Sequence record: MT446422.1
From: Escherichia virus TH57
DNA length: 64,000 nucleotides
Direction: 5' to 3' (one strand)
Shown here: one piece after another, positions 4,166-61,014 of the stretch
How positions within the stretch are numbered: the first letter of the stretch is position 1
Layout: each line of letters begins with the position of its first letter
The notes under the pieces: generated by a model
What the model was told of the DNA's origin: nothing
Database searches by the model: none
The model's input: the letters and a program-made list of their open reading frames with translations, nothing else
Made by a program: the position numbers and the translations under genes

Positions 4166-4398
4166 TGCGATATTCTATCGACGATGCGTTTAACCAAGAC
4201 GAAGAGTTCGAAGAAGAAATTAAGTATATGATGAAGGAATGGAAATTGAATCGCGCAGATATTCGTATCTGCGCTGACCACCCTTGTGGTGAAGATGTTA
4301 TCTATGTTAAAGGTAAATTTGCAGGATACATCGATGATGCGTTCTATTCTCACAATATGGGGATAGATACCGGTATGAGATACTTTAAGGAAAATTAA
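4165..4398 (+). CDS. hypothetical protein (position of T4 uvsY.-2)
   Basis: 77 aa ORF overlapping uvsY stop (ATGA junction). Confidence 0.5.
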   Translation: MRYSIDDAFNQDEEFEEEIKYMMKEWKLNRADIRICADHPCGEDVIYVKGKFAGYIDDAFYSHNMGIDTGMRYFKEN

Positions 4399-14365: not shown

Positions 14366-15184
14366 TTAAGAAATTCGTGATGCTGCGAGAGCAGACAAGT
14401 CCGCAAAGGACAGGGTAGGCTTGGTGCCTTTTTCTTCAACTGCTTCTGAAATGTAATTCAGTGCCGCAGCATCGTCTACATTTTTATTTATAGCGGCTTC
14501 GGTGATTGGTTTGTCGGTGGCTTCTACCTGACCTTTAACCATTTCAACGATAGCGCCAATTTTGGTACCGAATGCATCAGAGTATTCCATGCCTTCTACC
14601 AGAGAACCAACTTTTTCTTTTTGAGATTCAGTCAGGTCTTTAGTCGCTTCAGTCAACGCAACTTCACGTTGGACATAATTGATATAAGCATCACGCTTAG
14701 CAACTTCTTCGAACAGATTAGCGGTTTCTTCTTTCTGTTCAGCCAGTTCTTCCTGCATTTCTGCAACAACATCAACAGATTCTTCTGGAACAACAACGTT
14801 GTGCTCAACGAACAGTTCTTTCATGCCGGTGAACATGGATTCGAACAGGTCGGCTTTAATGCCACGGTCGACAGCCAGTTTATTTTCAGCGAGCCATTCT
14901 TTAGCAACGTGGTCCAGGAATTTAGCTGCAGATTCTTTCAGTTTTTTCTCTGCTTTTTCGTCGGCTTCTTCTTTATTCTTTTCGACTTCTTCTTCAGCTT
15001 TTTCAGCGATGGCGTGAATGTGAGATTCTGCCAGTTTGATGGCGTGTTGCTTGACGGTAGCTTCGAATACAGTGCCGAAGGTAGCTTTCGCTTCCGGGGA
15101 CAAATTAACTGATTCGAAAATACTATCAAGAGCAACGGAAGCATCGATATTCTGAGCTTCAGAAATGAGTTGTTCTTTAAGCAT
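14366..15184 (-). CDS. 22: prohead core scaffold protein gp22
   Basis: 272 aa, acidic coiled-coil-rich, position between 21 and 23. Confidence 0.85.
   Translation of the reverse strand: MLKEQLISEAQNIDASVALDSIFESVNLSPEAKATFGTVFEATVKQHAIKLAESHIHAIAEKAEEEVEKNKEEADEKAEKKLKESAAKFLDHVAKEWLAENKLAVDRGIKADLFESMFTGMKELFVEHNVVVPEESVDVVAEMQEELAEQKEETANLFEEVAKRDAYINYVQREVALTEATKDLTESQKEKVGSLVEGMEYSDAFGTKIGAIVEMVKGQVEATDKPITEAAINKNVDDAAALNYISEAVEEKGTKPTLSFADLSALAASRIS
14485..14492 (-). promoter_or_regulatory. late promoter box TATAAATA (gene 23)
   Basis: exact TATAAATA on minus strand within the 3' end of gene 22, as for T4 P23. Confidence 0.55.
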
Positions 15185-15213: not shown

Positions 15214-15221
15214 TATTTATA
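15214..15221 (-). promoter_or_regulatory. late promoter box TATAAATA (gene 22)
   Basis: exact TATAAATA about 30 nt upstream of gene 22 start. Confidence 0.6.
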
Positions 15222-15855
15222 ACGTCTTTAAAGCCTCTGCGAGAGCCATAAAGGCGTCATCGGCACTGGTATCGGCAACTGCCGTTTGTGATTCTGTAAT
15301 CTGCTTTGGTTTGACCCAAGCGTCCGGAGCACTTGGCCCCCATACTGCATCTACTCCAACCGTCAATTTAAAACCTTCATTAACGATGCTATAACCTTTT
15401 GCTGATTTAGTCAGGGAACCAAGTCCACGACTAGATACACCAGGAATCCAACCTGCTCTTATATTCGCAGCAAGTTTATCACCTGGGCCATGGTCGCCTT
15501 CGATAATACGCGCGCGGCCATATACATCATTACCTTTCCACCACATGTCCTCGATAATAATTGCCGCCTGCATAGGGTCAACGTTTGCACGAGGTGGATG
15601 GTTTAATTCTCCAAGAGACTGTTTGGTTTCAACCTGTTCGGCGATATAGTCCGCAACGGCTTTTTCCAAAATATGTTTAGGATAAAGTCGTTTATTACGG
15701 TTAACAACTTCAGCTTGTAGGAAAATACCTTCAATATAAAGTCCTGGCTTTAAACCGCTGCTGGAACCATCATGAGATTCCAACATCGGTACACCATCTT
15801 TAATTTCGCCCGGTTGACCCCAGTGTTCAATTAGTAACTCTGGTTTCTGTTCCAT
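15217..15855 (-). CDS. 21: prohead core protein and protease gp21
   Basis: 212 aa, same length as T4 gp21; position 68-21-22. Confidence 0.85.
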   Translation of the reverse strand: MEQKPELLIEHWGQPGEIKDGVPMLESHDGSSSGLKPGLYIEGIFLQAEVVNRNKRLYPKHILEKAVADYIAEQVETKQSLGELNHPPRANVDPMQAAIIIEDMWWKGNDVYGRARIIEGDHGPGDKLAANIRAGWIPGVSSRGLGSLTKSAKGYSIVNEGFKLTVGVDAVWGPSAPDAWVKPKQITESQTAVADTSADDAFMALAEALKTL

Positions 15856-45758: not shown

Positions 45759-46091
45759 ATGAACATCAAGACTTACAACGAGTTTTTAGCCGAATCCGCC
45801 ATCAATGAGACCAAATCAATTGATGATAGTGAAGGCTCTCTGAAATTTGGTTTAACCAAAAATGCAGATGGTGTTTTCTTTCAGATTGGTAATGAACGTT
45901 TTCAAACGTCCAAATATTCCAAAGCTGCAGTTGAAGCTGTCCTGAAATCTGGTGGCAAGTGGAAAGGCAAAGAAGGTACTAAAGAAATTGGTATCGCTGT
46001 TGACGGCGGTATGGCTTATTTTAAAATTGGCGATGAACAATTTATTATGTCTGCTCGCGGACGTAAAGAACTGGCAAAACTTTATAAATAA
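45759..46091 (+). CDS. internal head protein-like protein with capsid targeting sequence
   Basis: N-terminus MNIKTYNEFLAE resembles the T4 IP capsid targeting sequence MKTYQEFIAE with (L/I)xE gp21 cleavage motif. Confidence 0.65.
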   Translation: MNIKTYNEFLAESAINETKSIDDSEGSLKFGLTKNADGVFFQIGNERFQTSKYSKAAVEAVLKSGGKWKGKEGTKEIGIAVDGGMAYFKIGDEQFIMSARGRKELAKLYK

Positions 46092-46099
46092 GGTTTCTT

Positions 46100-46372
46100 A
46101 TGAAAACTTTCAATGAATTTTTCAACGAGTCCCAACTGAATGAAGAAGTAAAAATTAGTAAAGCAGTCAAAGCTATGATTGACAATATCAATCACCTGTA
46201 TAGCATTGACTTGACTGACCATATAACAATTGGTAACAAACGCAACTTTTTCGCGTTTGACATTTCAGAACTTGACCAGAACCAAATTAATAACATTGAG
46301 CGTTTTGCCAATGACAAGGGTCTCCGCCATGAGACAGCTGGTTATAAAAAATATGCAATTTATCTAAAATAG
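46100..46372 (+). CDS. internal head protein-like protein (CTS-bearing)
   Basis: N-terminus MKTFNEFFNE. Confidence 0.65.
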   Translation: MKTFNEFFNESQLNEEVKISKAVKAMIDNINHLYSIDLTDHITIGNKRNFFAFDISELDQNQINNIERFANDKGLRHETAGYKKYAIYLK

Positions 46373-46380
46373 GATTTCAA

Positions 46381-46680
46381 ATGCAAACTTTTCATGAATT
46401 TTTGGTAGAAAATAATTACCTGGCAGAAGCAAAAACCTGGCCTCTGGGCCTTCAGAAGAAAAACACCTACAAATGGGTTGACTTCAAAGACAAAGGCGAC
46501 GCTGAAGACTTTGACCAGCTGCGTAAAAATGGTTATACTTTCCTTGACTCAAACTATAACAAAATTACCTCATTTAGTCAGAAATCCAGCATCGCATATA
46601 TTGAAACTGGTAAAAACACCCCTAAGAACATCACTGACGACTTCGCAGCTTATGGCGTGATTCGCGGTTCAAAAATGTAA
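46381..46680 (+). CDS. internal head protein-like protein (CTS-bearing)
   Basis: N-terminus MQTFHEFLVE; paralogous to 59410..59673 (DAEDF...KNGY.F motif). Confidence 0.65.
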   Translation: MQTFHEFLVENNYLAEAKTWPLGLQKKNTYKWVDFKDKGDAEDFDQLRKNGYTFLDSNYNKITSFSQKSSIAYIETGKNTPKNITDDFAAYGVIRGSKM

Positions 46681-46709
46681 TGTACATGATGGGATAGTTG
46701 CAGTATAAT
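46680..46709 (+). promoter_or_regulatory. early promoter cassette
   Basis: tgtaca, 17-nt spacer, tataat flanked by gggatag/atctca imperfect inverted repeat, then conserved catcaactactggag leader. Confidence 0.5.
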
Positions 46710-46735
46710 TATCTCATCAACTACTGGAGCTACTA

Positions 46736-47014
46736 ATGAAAACTTATCAAGAATTTATTAACGAATCAATTAGTCACCCGGATATGCTGGAAGACCTGAA
46801 AGGACATCTGATGGTTAAGGCCAAACCGGTTGATGGTGGCGCATTTGAGTTGTTTCTTGTTAAAGGCGAAAACGGTCCTGATAACAAGAAAGTTTCAGCA
46901 ATGATGTTGACTAAAGGTTACAAAGTCAGTTCTTCCTGGAATGCTCCATTCACTTACGCGGTAAGCCCTCGTGAACTGAAAAAAGTTAAAGCTGGACAAT
47001 ATACAAAAATTTAG
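46736..47014 (+). CDS. internal head protein-like protein (CTS-bearing)
   Basis: N-terminus MKTYQEFINE. Confidence 0.7.
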   Translation: MKTYQEFINESISHPDMLEDLKGHLMVKAKPVDGGAFELFLVKGENGPDNKKVSAMMLTKGYKVSSSWNAPFTYAVSPRELKKVKAGQYTKI

Positions 47015-47043
47015 TGTACGTGATGAGATAGTTGTAGTATAAT
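47014..47043 (+). promoter_or_regulatory. early promoter cassette
   Basis: gtgtac, 18-nt spacer, tataat, conserved leader tatcccatcaactactggag. Confidence 0.5.
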
Positions 47044-47068
47044 TATCCCATCAACTACTGGAGACAAC

Positions 47069-47302
47069 ATGAAAACTTATCAAGAATTTATTAATGAAAC
47101 TGCTGATGTTAAAGTGCAATTCATTTACACCGGCAAGAAAGATAAAATGGGCGAAATGCCTTATGGAACTCTCCGCGACGCCTTAGATAATTACGGTCAG
47201 CTCGGCGGTGAAGAGTTTGGGGACTATTTTGTTATCCAGGGTCCAGCAGAAGTTATCGAGAAATGGGCTAAACAGTATAAATCAATTTTCCGTAAAAAAT
47301 AA
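47069..47302 (+). CDS. internal head protein-like protein (CTS-bearing)
   Basis: N-terminus MKTYQEFINE. Confidence 0.7.
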   Translation: MKTYQEFINETADVKVQFIYTGKKDKMGEMPYGTLRDALDNYGQLGGEEFGDYFVIQGPAEVIEKWAKQYKSIFRKK

Positions 47303-47333
47303 GTGTACTTTTAGATATGGGATAGTGTATAAT
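47303..47333 (+). promoter_or_regulatory. early promoter cassette
   Basis: gtgtac ... GGGATAgtgTATAATtATCCC (inverted repeat enclosing -10), conserved leader. Confidence 0.5.
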
Positions 47334-47361
47334 TATCCCATCAACTACTGAGGAGAATAAA

Positions 47362-49780: not shown

Positions 49781-49809
49781 TTTTACTTCCAGGTGGGATA
49801 GTGTATAAT
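49781..49809 (+). promoter_or_regulatory. early promoter cassette
   Basis: ttttac, 17-nt spacer, tataat inside GGGATA/TATCCC inverted repeat. Confidence 0.5.
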
Positions 49810-49851
49810 TATCCCATACTGAGTTAACAAATAAAACACTGGAGAATAAAA

Positions 49852-57357: not shown

Positions 57358-57590
57358 GTATTGCAATTTATATTAAATCAGAGTCGTGTGATTCTTATCT
57401 GTATTCCTATGACACTGGAACATCAGAAGAGAAAATCAAAGATGATTTAGAAACCGACTTGGATATGTTCCGACCTATTTCTGAATACAGAATTCAAATT
57501 TCTGATAGTGAATCCCCTTCATTGGAAAATAGACTTGAATTTTTAATGAGTGATATTTTTAACCAATCCTGGGAACGTGACGATGAGTAA
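57354..57590 (+). CDS. hypothetical small acidic protein
   Basis: 78 aa. Confidence 0.45.
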   Translation: MSIAIYIKSESCDSYLYSYDTGTSEEKIKDDLETDLDMFRPISEYRIQISDSESPSLENRLEFLMSDIFNQSWERDDE

Positions 57591-58041
57591 GAAAAACAAG
57601 GTGAAAGAATTATCTGCTGGCATTATTTTCATGACTGAAGATAAAGAGTTATTCATGGGTCGTGTGACCGGTTCTCGTAAACCAGGTATGCCTGCACACA
57701 AATGGGACATCCCTAAGGGTCATGTTGAAGCTGATGAATCCCCGATTGAAGCTGCTATCCGTGAAACTGAAGAAGAAACTGGGTTTACCCAATATGACCC
57801 AGCATTCTTAAAGGACCTGGGTGAATTTCGTTATTCAGATAATAAAAACCTTCACCTGTTTTTGTACACGGTTCCGGTCGAGCATGAGCAGTTCAGACAT
57901 AGTAAATGCTCTGCCTATCATACCTTCCCGGATGGTAGTTCAGTCCCCGAGTTTGATGCATTTGCTCTGATTAAACCGAGCCAATGGCAATACGTAATGG
58001 GTAAATCGATGTACAAGGTAATGACTCAAATTTTCGGATAA
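57583..58041 (+). CDS. nudE: Nudix hydrolase NudE
   Basis: Nudix box GHVEADESPIEAAIRETEEETGF; about 152 aa; adjacent to lysozyme as T4 e.1. Confidence 0.85.
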   Translation: MSKKNKVKELSAGIIFMTEDKELFMGRVTGSRKPGMPAHKWDIPKGHVEADESPIEAAIRETEEETGFTQYDPAFLKDLGEFRYSDNKNLHLFLYTVPVEHEQFRHSKCSAYHTFPDGSSVPEFDAFALIKPSQWQYVMGKSMYKVMTQIFG

Positions 58042-58068
58042 TAAATACCCCTATATAAGGGGGGTATT

Positions 58069-58560
58069 ATGAATATATTCGAAATGTTACGCATAGATGA
58101 AGGTTGTAAGTTGGATTTGTACCGTGACACCGAAGGCTTTTGGACCATCGGCATCGGTCAATTGATAACTAAGAACCCATCGAAAGACGTTGCTCGCGCT
58201 GAGCTGGACAAATTAATGGGTCGTGTTTGCAACGGTAGGATTACCCAGATTGAAGCTGAAACCTTGTTTAACCGTTCAGTGGAAAAAGCTAAAGCCGGAA
58301 TCTTGAAACATCCTGTCTTAAAACCTGTTTATGATGTACTGGATGAAGTTCGTCGTTGCGCACTCATTAATATGGTATTCCAAATGGGTGTAGCTGGTGT
58401 AGCTGGTTTTCCTAAGGGGCTGCGATTGCTCAAGGCTAAATCATGGGAAGCTGCTGCTAAGGAACTGGCTGACTCAAGATGGTATAAAGTCCAGACTCCG
58501 AACCGGGCCAAACGAGTTATTGAAACTTTCCGTACTGGAACTTTTGACGCATACAAATGA
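58069..58560 (+). CDS. e: endolysin (T4 lysozyme, gene e)
   Basis: 163 aa; [12 protein letters not shown]...DTEG..TIGIG...[13 protein letters not shown]...NRAKRVI.TFRTGT.DAYK matches T4 lysozyme with Glu11, Asp20, Thr26. Confidence 0.95.
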
Positions 58561-58616
58561 GTTTACATCTCCAAATGATAGGGTTATAATGACCCTATCA
58601 ACTACGGAGAACAAAC

Positions 58617-59033
58617 ATGACTCGCATTAATTTAACCCTGGTATCTGAACTCGCTGACCAACATCTTATGGCTGAATATCGTGAACTTCCTCGCGTGTTT
58701 GGTGCTGTTCGTAAGCATGTGCAAAATGGTAAAAAGGTGTCTGACTTTAAAATCCCATCATCTTTTCTTTTAGGGACTGGCCATGTCACCTTCTTTTATG
58801 ATAAGCTTTTGTTCCTTAAAAACAGGCATCAAGAACTTATTGCGGAATGTTTAAAGCGAGGGTTTAACATAAAAGATATTTCTACCCAAGATTTAAATGA
58901 TATTCCTGATGAATGGAAGAATGATTATCAACCATCAATCTGGTCAATTGAAATCAGTCAAGCCAGACTGAATGAGAAAATTTCTCAAAAGCCTACCTGG
59001 TACAAATACTATGGGAAAGCTGTGTACGCTTAA
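58617..59033 (+). CDS. denV: endonuclease V (pyrimidine dimer DNA glycosylase/AP lyase, DenV)
   Basis: 138 aa; [35 protein letters not shown] matches remembered T4 DenV. Confidence 0.95.
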
Positions 59034-59081
59034 CTAAAAAGGTTGTATAATGATTTTATCAACCAAACAATGGAATATAAA

Positions 59082-59396
59082 ATGAAAACTTATCAAGAAT
59101 TTATTACTGAATCTACCCAAAAACGTGTTGAAGGCGGTTATGTCTGGATTGAACAATTAACCCCACCAAGTGAAACGAGCACGGGTTCGTGGAAAATTAC
59201 TGTTGATGGCCCTGGTGGAAAACGTAAGACTATTAAAGAAATTAAAGGCTATTATGATGAAGCCAAATCATGGGCTGGTAGTCATGTAATGCAGATTAAA
59301 ATTGCAAACCCGGATAACGTTCATGCGGCAAAAGCATTCCGTCGCATTGGTAATAAACTTTATGATGCGTTTTTGCGTGATTTCCCTAAAGAGTAA
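59082..59396 (+). CDS. internal head protein-like protein (CTS-bearing)
   Basis: N-terminus MKTYQEFITE from ATG at 59082. Confidence 0.65.
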   Translation: MKTYQEFITESTQKRVEGGYVWIEQLTPPSETSTGSWKITVDGPGGKRKTIKEIKGYYDEAKSWAGSHVMQIKIANPDNVHAAKAFRRIGNKLYDAFLRDFPKE

Positions 59397-59409
59397 TTAA
59401 AGAGACATT

Positions 59410-59673
59410 ATGAAAACTTATCAAGAATTTATTACTGAATCTGCTAAAGCTCCTACCGGTGCTTTTAAAGTCCGCGCCTTCGCTGGTGATGCTGAAGACT
59501 TTGGCACCATGAAGCGCAATGGTTATTCTTTCTTTGGTGGCGATGGTAAAGAAATTGTTACCTATGCAAAACGCCGCGAAATCGCATTCGTGGTTGCTGG
59601 TAAGAAAGTTGATGTTGACGATATTGAATGGGATTTTGATACCTTTGGTATTGTTTCTGGCGGTAAAGCATAA
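59410..59673 (+). CDS. internal head protein-like protein (CTS-bearing)
   Basis: N-terminus MKTYQEFITE; paralog of 46381..46680. Confidence 0.7.
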   Translation: MKTYQEFITESAKAPTGAFKVRAFAGDAEDFGTMKRNGYSFFGGDGKEIVTYAKRREIAFVVAGKKVDVDDIEWDFDTFGIVSGGKA

Positions 59674-59675
59674 CT

Positions 59676-59704
59676 GTTTACTTTATGATGGGATAGTGTA
59701 TAAT
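59676..59704 (+). promoter_or_regulatory. sigma70-type early promoter (best match in window)
   Basis: GTTTAC, 17-nt spacer, TATAAT; -10 inside GGGATA/TATCCC inverted repeat; conserved leader. Confidence 0.65.
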
Positions 59705-59729
59705 TATCCCATCAACTTGGAGCGAATAA

Positions 59730-60029
59730 ATGAAAACTTATCAAGAATTTATTACTGAAGCCAAAGCTCCTAAAGCATTTCAAATTGGGGTTCAGGGTAA
59801 TTTAGACCAACAATACGTTGATGCTATTGTAGCAAGCCTCGGCAAGCAGGGTGTACAAGTGGATTTGGTTGATTTTACTAAAGGTAATACTTTTAATATT
59901 GTCACATCTAAAGGTTCTTTAGCTAAAGTTAAAAAGGCCTTTGGCGTAGCACAAGCATATGAAATCGACCATTCCGAATTGGAAAATAAAGGTCGCCAGA
60001 ACACAATTAAAGGCTCTGGTTCTTTCTAA
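59730..60029 (+). CDS. internal head protein-like protein (CTS-bearing)
   Basis: N-terminus MKTYQEFITE. Confidence 0.7.
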   Translation: MKTYQEFITEAKAPKAFQIGVQGNLDQQYVDAIVASLGKQGVQVDLVDFTKGNTFNIVTSKGSLAKVKKAFGVAQAYEIDHSELENKGRQNTIKGSGSF

Positions 60030-60190
60030 TAAAGGCAAGCCGGCCCTCTCCTCATGAACGTCGCGTCCTCTGAGTGATGGACCTTTCCCTACCTGTAATA
60101 AGGTCGAGCCCGAGTGCGGTAAGGGGTTTACATTCGGATACATGGACGAATTAATGTGCCAAGGAATGGCCCTACAACTAAGAGACAACT

Positions 60191-60718
60191 ATGAAATTTT
60201 TAACTCCAATTTATCTAACCTTAATGCACGCCTTCGCTGAACGCGCCATTGAACGCTTAGATTCAGACCAATACACCTGGTATGAACCCGCTTCAAGAAT
60301 GCAAGAGTTTGGTACTCTTCGACTTGATGGTGGTCGTCAAACAGGTAAAACAAGTGCCCTTGCACAGTTCGCTGCGGATTGGGTTTCCAAGGGTAATGAT
60401 GTGATTGTTATGTCGAGTTCTTCACATCGCTCCCGAGAAATCTGTGATATAATAAAGCGGGTTTCTAAGGCGCAACCACATCTTAATGTTGAGCGACCTG
60501 GTTTTGTTGTATATGATACTGTTCGTTCATTTTTAGACGAAGATAATTTCCATAAGTACCGTGGATTGCGTTTTACGCGTCTTTTAATCATTATTGAAGA
60601 ACCTATTCGCCTCCCTACAATGGATAAGTTCTATGAAGCTTATCAGGTAATGATGAATAAATTTATGTGTCAAGGTGATAAGCCTTTGCCGTTATTCTTT
60701 GTGATAGGAATGCAATAA
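60191..60718 (+). CDS. hypothetical P-loop NTPase-like protein
   Basis: 175 aa; Walker A-like GGRQTGKTS and hydrophobic strand + acidic residues (LLIIIEEP) consistent with Walker B. Confidence 0.5.
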   Translation: MKFLTPIYLTLMHAFAERAIERLDSDQYTWYEPASRMQEFGTLRLDGGRQTGKTSALAQFAADWVSKGNDVIVMSSSSHRSREICDIIKRVSKAQPHLNVERPGFVVYDTVRSFLDEDNFHKYRGLRFTRLLIIIEEPIRLPTMDKFYEAYQVMMNKFMCQGDKPLPLFFVIGMQ

Positions 60719-61014
60719 TGACTCATGAAGAGCTTTTTGACCAAATCTATTTTATTCCAAAGGTTAGGTCTGAAGATTTCGTAAAGAATTTTGAAATCTT
60801 TAATAAAGCAAATTTCTTTGAGTACGTGTTTTTGTCTGGACCTTTTATTGGGTCCAGATTTCGTTGCACTGCTCCGAGTATTCGCTTAATGAAGCTGGTT
60901 CCTTACTTTACTCTGGAATTTATTTCTGGACCATGTAAGGGTATTATAACTCGTAGCCTCCTGACATATGACCAGGATGTGCGATTAATTAGTGACTGGA
61001 AAAAATATGTCTAA
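60718..61014 (+). CDS. hypothetical protein
   Basis: 98 aa, ATGA overlap with upstream gene. Confidence 0.5.
   Translation: MTHEELFDQIYFIPKVRSEDFVKNFEIFNKANFFEYVFLSGPFIGSRFRCTAPSIRLMKLVPYFTLEFISGPCKGIITRSLLTYDQDVRLISDWKKYV

Follow-up and report, generated by a model that had tools for sequence, protein, structure and literature searches.

Three consecutive genes downstream of denV in Escherichia virus TH57, here called B1, B2 and B3, are very probably genuine internal head protein (IP) genes of a VR7/CJ20-like Gaprivervirus. Each is an exchangeable cassette of the IP locus at denV, and the content of this locus changes by homologous recombination between repeats in the DNA encoding the targeting sequence (CTS) and ~60-nt promoter/hairpin cassettes. 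The window analyzed is a stretch of 64,000 nucleotides (sequence record MT446422.1), and its features are collected in Table 1. The window belongs to a T4-type phage of the genus Gaprivervirus resembling VR7 and CJ20, and its denV-side region shares 94-98% DNA identity with the Gapriverviruses VR7, SP18, VR20, VR26 and CJ20. In VR7 the gene order is nudE, e, denV, ip10, VR7ORF127c ("similar to RB69 ORF125c"), ip7, vs.8. The ip10, VR7ORF127c and ip7 genes of VR7, SP18, VR20, CJ20 and RB69 (ORF124c/125c) are orthologs of B1, B2 and B3, in the same slot and order and with ~94-98% DNA identity.

Table 1 Positions of the features discussed in the TH57 window.
Feature	Position	Strand	Basis or remark
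Gene 22, scaffolding core protein (T4_CASP)	14366-15184	-	E=4.8e-91; expected CTS docking partner
Gene 21, prohead protease (Peptidase_S77)	15217-15855	-	E=6.6e-102; expected to cut after I-T-E
Cluster A, expanded ipI locus	45759-47302	+	Between 57B and tRNA.4; five CTS ORFs
A1, VR7_gp156-like	45759-46091	+	CTS ORF, cluster A
A2/ip9	46100-46372	+	CTS ORF, cluster A
A3, VR7_gp154-like	46381-46680	+	CTS ORF, cluster A; B2 paralog
Cassette upstream of A4	46678-46736	+	nhmmer and hairpin
A4, VR7_gp153-like	46736-47014	+	CTS ORF, cluster A
Cassette copy	47012-47070	+	nhmmer and hairpin
A5/ip6	47069-47302	+	CTS ORF, cluster A
Cassette copy	47304-47360	+	nhmmer and hairpin
Cassette copy	49781-49836	+	nhmmer and hairpin
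nudE	57550-58041	+	Upstream of e
e	58069-58560	+	Between nudE and denV
Promoter and hairpin cassette upstream of denV	58562-58617	+	nhmmer profile
denV (endonuclease V)	58617-59033	+	Upstream neighbor of B1
B1, ip10-type IP gene	59082-59396	+	ORF and CTS; matches VR7 ip10
CTS-coding 30 nt of B1	59082-59111	+	Identical copies at 59410-59439 and 59730-59759
B2, RB69 ORF125c/VR7ORF127c-type IP gene	59410-59673	+	A3 paralog
Promoter and hairpin cassette upstream of B3	59675-59731	+	nhmmer E=5e-14
B3, ip7-type IP gene	59730-60029	+	Matches VR7 ip7
vs.8	60191-60718	+	Downstream neighbor of B3

Functional genes are expected to be constrained at the protein level. The products of B1 (104 aa), B2 (87 aa) and B3 (99 aa) are identical to their CJ20 counterparts, and dN/dS against relatives (dS 0.15-0.30) is 0.04 for B1 (compared with VR7, VR26 and UPEC01), 0.09-0.10 for B2 and 0-0.07 for B3. 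The three ORFs are thus under strong purifying selection (dN/dS 0-0.10 overall) and are therefore real protein-coding genes. In VR7, VR20 and CJ20 they are annotated as ip10, "internal head protein" and ip7, and the RefSeq name for the B2 ortholog is likewise internal head protein. The B3 family is the most widespread IP family in our survey of IMG/VR loci, with 18 members among 122 CTS ORFs. A Pfam scan of all eight CTS-bearing proteins of the window gave no match above threshold. Some database entries of the ip7 type are irregular. In VR7 (L001, ~4170-4215), the ip7 cassette stops directly behind TATAAT (gggatagtgtataATGttaacttatcaagaa), with loss of the 3' hairpin arm, Shine-Dalgarno sequence and normal ATG, and the annotated start reads MLTYQEF; either this truncated allele is poorly expressed or the truncation is an artifact of sequencing or assembly, and both explanations are tentative. 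Several Ip7 homologs (among P0032, P0037 and P0040-P0042) carry an N-terminal extension, MAPFNLNLTILGYK, ahead of MKTY, which most likely reflects mis-called upstream starts.

Members of the IP class are expected to share an N-terminal CTS. The initial annotation had stated that three ORFs at this position begin with MKTYQEFITE and that the window carries eight CTS-bearing genes, against three in T4 (ipI, ipII and ipIII), and both statements hold. The first 30 nt of B1, B2 and B3 are identical (ATGAAAACTTATCAAGAATTTATTACTGAA) and encode this peptide. A degenerate CTS pattern matches five times in the window (0.00 expected from 100 shuffles), a shorter 21-nt pattern matches eight times (0.14 expected), and a six-frame scan at the protein level returns a total of eight CTS-like ORFs, each on the plus strand, with five at 45759-47302, three at 59082-60029 and none outside these two IP loci. 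Since the pattern counts exceed those of shuffled sequence and the scan yields eight ORFs, the recurrence of the peptide is real and not due to chance. Eight is also the largest IP total in the IMG/VR sample, and VR20 has an equal or nearly equal number. Synonymous-codon differences in CTS DNA are slightly lower within genomes than between them (0.197 versus 0.226; 0/500 permutations), but the effect is small and relatedness confounds it, and no argument here rests on concerted evolution of the CTS copies of a genome.

The CTSs of the first three genes of cluster A are divergent (MNIKTYNEFLAE in A1, MKTFNEFFNE in A2 and MQTFHEFLVE in A3). In each, a second L/I-x-E motif lies ~5-6 residues further along (INE at 15-17 in A1, LNE at 13-15 in A2, LAE at 14-16 in A3), recalling the 19-residue propeptide of T4 IPI, MKTFKEFTSTTTPVSTITE. 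The first site of A2, F-N-E, does not fit L/I-x-E. In B1, residues 51-53 (59232-59240) form an internal I-K-E, where gp21 might cut a second time if the motif is exposed.

Packaging through a CTS is expected to depend on the scaffolding core and the prohead protease. Both gp22 and gp21 are encoded in the window, as are gp23 and gp20. In T4, the first 10 residues of IPIII are enough for packaging, targeting depends on CTS residues 4 and 7 and processing on residues 8 and 10, and gp21 cleaves after L/I-x-E (PMC9026906). All three B proteins have Y4 and F7 at the targeting positions and I8-T9-E10 as a predicted gp21 site, i.e. they retain the reported targeting and processing residues. By analogy with T4, MKTYQEFITE would dock each B protein to the scaffolding core that gp22 forms in the prohead, gp21 would cleave after I-T-E, and the mature proteins of 8-10.6 kDa would remain in the head to be injected with the DNA. 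The computed mature forms are 94 aa, 10.6 kDa and pI 9.6 for B1, 77 aa, 8.3 kDa and pI 6.2 (i.e. not basic) for B2, and 89 aa, 9.5 kDa and pI 9.3 for B3.

Experimental evidence comes from Morganella phage MP1, whose gp136 was identified in purified virions by mass spectrometry (6 peptides, 59% coverage; PMC5384007 Table 1). This protein is a member of the B2/A3 family and its gene adjoins 57B. Among 1.84 billion representatives, the family has 13 matches at E<=0.001, and the credible ones all have a CTS. MP1 gp136 thus lends indirect experimental support to packaging of the B2/A3 family. No comparable virion data were found for the B1 and B3 families, whose members would be packaged by analogy with T4. 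Alternatively, MKTYQEF could be a mere translation-start or leader module of early genes, with the B proteins staying cytoplasmic. The promoters agree with such a role, since early sigma-70-like sequences lie upstream of the genes, the best promoters there being of the early type, and the exact late promoter TATAAATA is absent upstream of B1-B3; in addition, T4 IPIII is functional when expressed in the host without its CTS. However, the peptide keeps exactly the targeting and gp21 cleavage residues, CTS ORFs are confined to the two IP loci, and a B2/A3 family member is physically present in MP1 virions. A leader module is for these reasons a very unlikely explanation, and we retain packaging as the preferred reading. 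Because no exact late promoter lies upstream, late supply of B1-B3 for head assembly is inferred from T4.

If IP genes are duplicated or shuffled between the two loci, as the initial annotation proposed, paralogs are expected to be recognizable outside the CTS. The CTS was removed from all eight products, and the 28 pairs of mature parts were aligned (Smith-Waterman, 2000 shuffles per pair). The B2 product (59410) had been called clearly related to the A3 product (46381), and formal alignment bears this out, with a score of 117 compared with 26.0 +/- 4.8 for shuffled sequences (z=18.9; 0/2000 as good). The other 27 pairs all stay at or below z=3.1, leaving A3 and B2 as the one related pair among the eight. 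They have the motif GDAEDF...NGY.F...IA...G...DF..GV..G.K in common and are 31% identical, and the A3 type carries ~12 extra residues after the CTS, including the second L-x-E site. Two further pairs suggested by PHROG, A1 with B1 (phrog_3966) and B3 with B2/A3 (phrog_2667), show no pairwise similarity without the CTS, and hhalign of 22 family alignments gave a best probability of 12%. Since the mature domains are unrelated once the CTS is removed, the grouping in phrog_3966 and phrog_2667 apparently stems from the CTS, and care is needed in transferring annotation within these two merged groups.

The age of the A3/B2 duplication can be judged from relatives. Salmonella Gelderlandviruses have both types, each in its own locus and 74-80% identical to those of the window: STP4a_129 is of the A3 type (74% identical) and adjoins 57B, and in L013 a B2-type gene (~76-80% identical) lies downstream of denV. 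Mosigviruses such as RB69 have the B2 type only, and the only copy in MP1 shares 34% identity with B2 and 40% with A3. A recent duplication within this genome, from A3 to B2 or the reverse, might be suspected, since the two are clearly homologous and their loci have recombinogenic repeats in common. Yet it is contradicted by the mere 31% identity and the ~12-residue extra segment, by the separate A3 and B2 lineages of the Gelderlandviruses, and by the Mosigviruses with only B2, and we regard it as extremely improbable. The duplication is not recent, because identity is low and the Gelderlandviruses hold each type in its own locus; A3 and B2 are old paralogs, one kept per locus.

In T4, the gene order in the direction of transcription is nudE, e, ipIII, ipII, denV, vs.8, whereas in the window it is nudE, e, denV, B1, B2, B3, vs.8. 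The IP genes of the window therefore lie on the opposite side of denV from those of T4. The ORFs had been placed at the position of T4 ipII/ipIII; this is correct in that they stand beside e and denV, but they occupy the slot between denV and vs.8, not the T4 slot between e and denV. Relatives use both slots. The slot between e and denV is without an IP gene in the window, VR7, UPEC01 and VR26, holds an ipII-type gene in CJ20, P896 and the Dhakavirus IME341, and holds another IP gene in UPEC07. The slot between denV and vs.8 contains B1, B2 and B3 in the window, VR7 and CJ20, B2 and B3 in P896, B3 in UPEC07 and IME341, B1 and B2 in UPEC01, and B1 with a B2/B3 hybrid in VR26. Among IMG/VR loci anchored on denV, 32 have 1-4 CTS ORFs each, distributed over both sides of denV.

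The 160-nt spacer between B3 and vs.8 (60030-60190; 51% G+C) is a remnant of a longer vs.8 of the T4 type, whose 5' part has decayed. Within it, DLSLPVIRSSPSAVRG matches residues 3-18 of T4 Vs.8 in the vs.8 frame, interrupted by stops, and ELMCQGMALQLR matches residues 24-35 in a different frame. As annotated, vs.8 encodes 175 aa (219 aa in T4) and begins past this remnant. A structured RNA was considered for the spacer and rejected, with folding z-scores of -0.3 and +0.3 that are not significant. An Rfam scan of 58000-61000 at E<=1 gave no match.

Variable IP loci are expected to carry PeSL-like elements, i.e. repeats in which an early promoter overlaps an inverted repeat. A generic scan for hairpins around TAnnnT was too noisy, and an nhmmer profile was used instead. 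It found six plus-strand copies of a ~60-nt element with promoters matching at 10-11 of 12 positions. All have a T4-early-type promoter, (G)TTTAC, 16-17 nt and TATAAT, followed by ATCAACT and a Shine-Dalgarno sequence, and all form a stable hairpin (-12 to -19 kcal/mol; z -2.5 to -6) whose loop and 3' arm include the -10 hexamer. No other sequence in the region matches a sigma-70-like promoter as well as the cassettes before denV and B3. The one before B3 reads TTTACT, a 16-nt spacer, TATAAT, then ATCAACT and GGAG (10/12; hairpin -18.7 kcal/mol, z=-6.0); the one before denV (11/12; hairpin -14.5 kcal/mol, z=-5.3) has another stem sequence with the architecture of the remaining copies. A weak remnant precedes B1 (E=0.7), and the profile found no cassette before B2; the denV cassette would also drive B1 and B2. 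In T4, equivalent elements precede denV (homologous), ipII and ipIII. The cassettes are not specific to IP genes, because 47304-47360 precedes tRNA.4 (47362) and 49781-49836 precedes an ORF starting near 49850. The only exact late-promoter motif near either IP locus is at 46083-46090, at the end of A1 and just upstream of A2 (ip9), and the sequence before e, AATAAATA, has one mismatch to it.

The initial annotation had raised the possibility that flanking promoter cassettes share identical sequence. They do: the longest exact strings common to both loci are a 30-mer of the cassette (47317-47346 and 59688) and 25-26 nt of CTS DNA. If such repeats serve in exchange, variant junctions are expected to coincide with them. 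Seven relatives were aligned to the window, and insertions were found in the cassette and most deletion junctions in CTS DNA. The insertions between e and denV in CJ20, UPEC07 and P896 begin at 58555-58606, in the denV cassette. Four of the five deletion junctions between denV and vs.8 lie inside CTS-coding DNA, with 32-48 nt in common: VR26 lacks 320 nt with a 46-nt overlap at the junction, leaving as its ip7 product the B2/B3 hybrid MKTYQEFITESAKVPKAFQIG; UPEC07 lacks the B1 body, B2 and the cassette (32 nt); P896 lacks B1 (39 nt); and IME341 is a deletion variant with 48 nt. The exception is UPEC01, which lacks B3 and whose junction is outside the CTS and cassette repeats. These CTS-junction deletions in close relatives are a clean natural illustration of arsenal reshuffling. 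Exchange also extends to family level, since 6 of the 22 mature-domain families among the 122 CTS ORFs (IMG/VR loci anchored on denV or 57B) occur in both loci. The earlier claim of duplication or shuffling between the loci thus stands as regards shared families, but the A3/B2 pair, at 31% identity, is not a recent instance.

A bolder reading, which we consider doubtful, is that the CTS 30-mer and the promoter/hairpin cassette form a dedicated, integron-like capture-and-exchange system. If so, an ORF recombined behind the CTS and cassette would gain expression, packaging and injection at once; B2 and A3 would be two inhibitors tuned to variants of one defense enzyme, with a precedent in IPI and IpII for two-subunit and fused GmrSD; and the arsenal of eight IPs would explain an unusually broad host range.

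Following injection, the B proteins would most likely block first-line host defenses, for example modification-dependent restriction enzymes, by analogy with the IPs whose role has been assigned. All four of these counter host defenses: IPI* inhibits GmrS/GmrD, IpII inhibits fused GmrSD, IPIII is needed on ECOR17 against a system of that host, and Bas37_0260 inhibits McrBC. For B1-B3 themselves, no Pfam family, PDB sequence or informative fold linked to anti-defense activity was found. A PDB sequence profile search returned no match. AF2 models of B2 (pLDDT 72.8) and B3 (pLDDT 74.7) are moderately confident small alpha/beta folds. The B2 model has no match in the PDB (best E=0.68) and matches only family members in BFVD, and the B3 model has generic ferredoxin-like/ACT/HMA-type matches that are uninformative (TM 0.45-0.54).

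These searches point to no defense target, which would also agree with packaged proteins that are mainly structural or DNA-associated, acting in charge neutralization or head morphogenesis and not as inhibitors. Mature B1 and B3 are indeed basic (pI 9.3-9.6), as are T4 IPII and IPIII, and head assembly is aberrant in IPIII mutants and in triple-IP mutants of T4 (PMC9026906). B2, in contrast, is near neutral, and every IP with an assigned function counters host defenses. Moreover, IP genes come and go among phages whose flanks are ~95% identical, which fits accessory arms-race genes and not structural necessity. A mainly structural role seems improbable to us, and B1-B3 are likely packaged, injected anti-defense proteins, as the T4 precedents suggest. 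Because only four IPs have an assigned counter-defense role, the eight IPs of the window, including B2/A3, lend themselves readily to screening against type IV restriction and other defenses, although the practical value is modest.

Among known systems, the B proteins resemble the T4 IPs. Their CTS differs from that of IPII and IPIII solely at position 9 (T for A), and they likewise are small, have an I-x-E site, are encoded with gp21 and gp22, and are basic in two cases of three, the exception being B2, unlike the classical T4 IPs. The B genes also stand beside e and denV, with a second cluster at the ipI locus. T4 has two ip genes between e and denV and one at ipI, whereas the window has three between denV and vs.8 and five at the ipI locus; unlike CJ20 and P896, it has no ipII-type gene in the slot between e and denV. 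No mature-domain homology to T4 IPI, IPII or IPIII was found, the likeness being confined to the CTS, and hhalign between IP families gives probabilities of at most 12%. IPs are, however, defined by the CTS and have diverse mature domains, and mature homology is not a requirement for membership. Bas37_0260, from the ipI locus of a T4 relative, similarly combines a CTS with an unrelated mature domain and has a proven anti-restriction role.

The locus architecture has close precedents too. The work of Repoila et al. from 1994 reportedly described a conserved 11-residue leader, flanking DNA of ~70 bp in which an inverted repeat overlaps a T4 early promoter, and recombinational shuffling between these flanking elements. 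As with those elements and with PeSLs (Arbiol et al. 2010; Comeau et al. 2014), variable small ORFs of the window are bordered by ~60-nt repeats that combine an early promoter with a stem-loop, and variants have junctions at these repeats. According to PMC2839356, Repoila et al. (1994) observed PeSL-like sequences at both of the hypervariable IP loci in T-even phages, the number of known IP variants exceeds 30, and the elements, which are analogs and not homologs of RB49/phi1 PeSLs, may promote the shuffling of IPs and restrict it to these two loci. In the window, the hairpin overlaps the -10 hexamer instead of lying beside the promoter and has no U-tract, and most junctions are in CTS-coding DNA, not in the cassette. 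Because the B genes are annotated in VR7, VR20 and CJ20 and variable IP loci are in the literature, the genes, their names, the polymorphic loci and the promoter/inverted-repeat elements are already known, the loci and elements since 1994. The leader, flanking elements and shuffling seen in the TH57 window are exactly those that Repoila et al. reportedly described.
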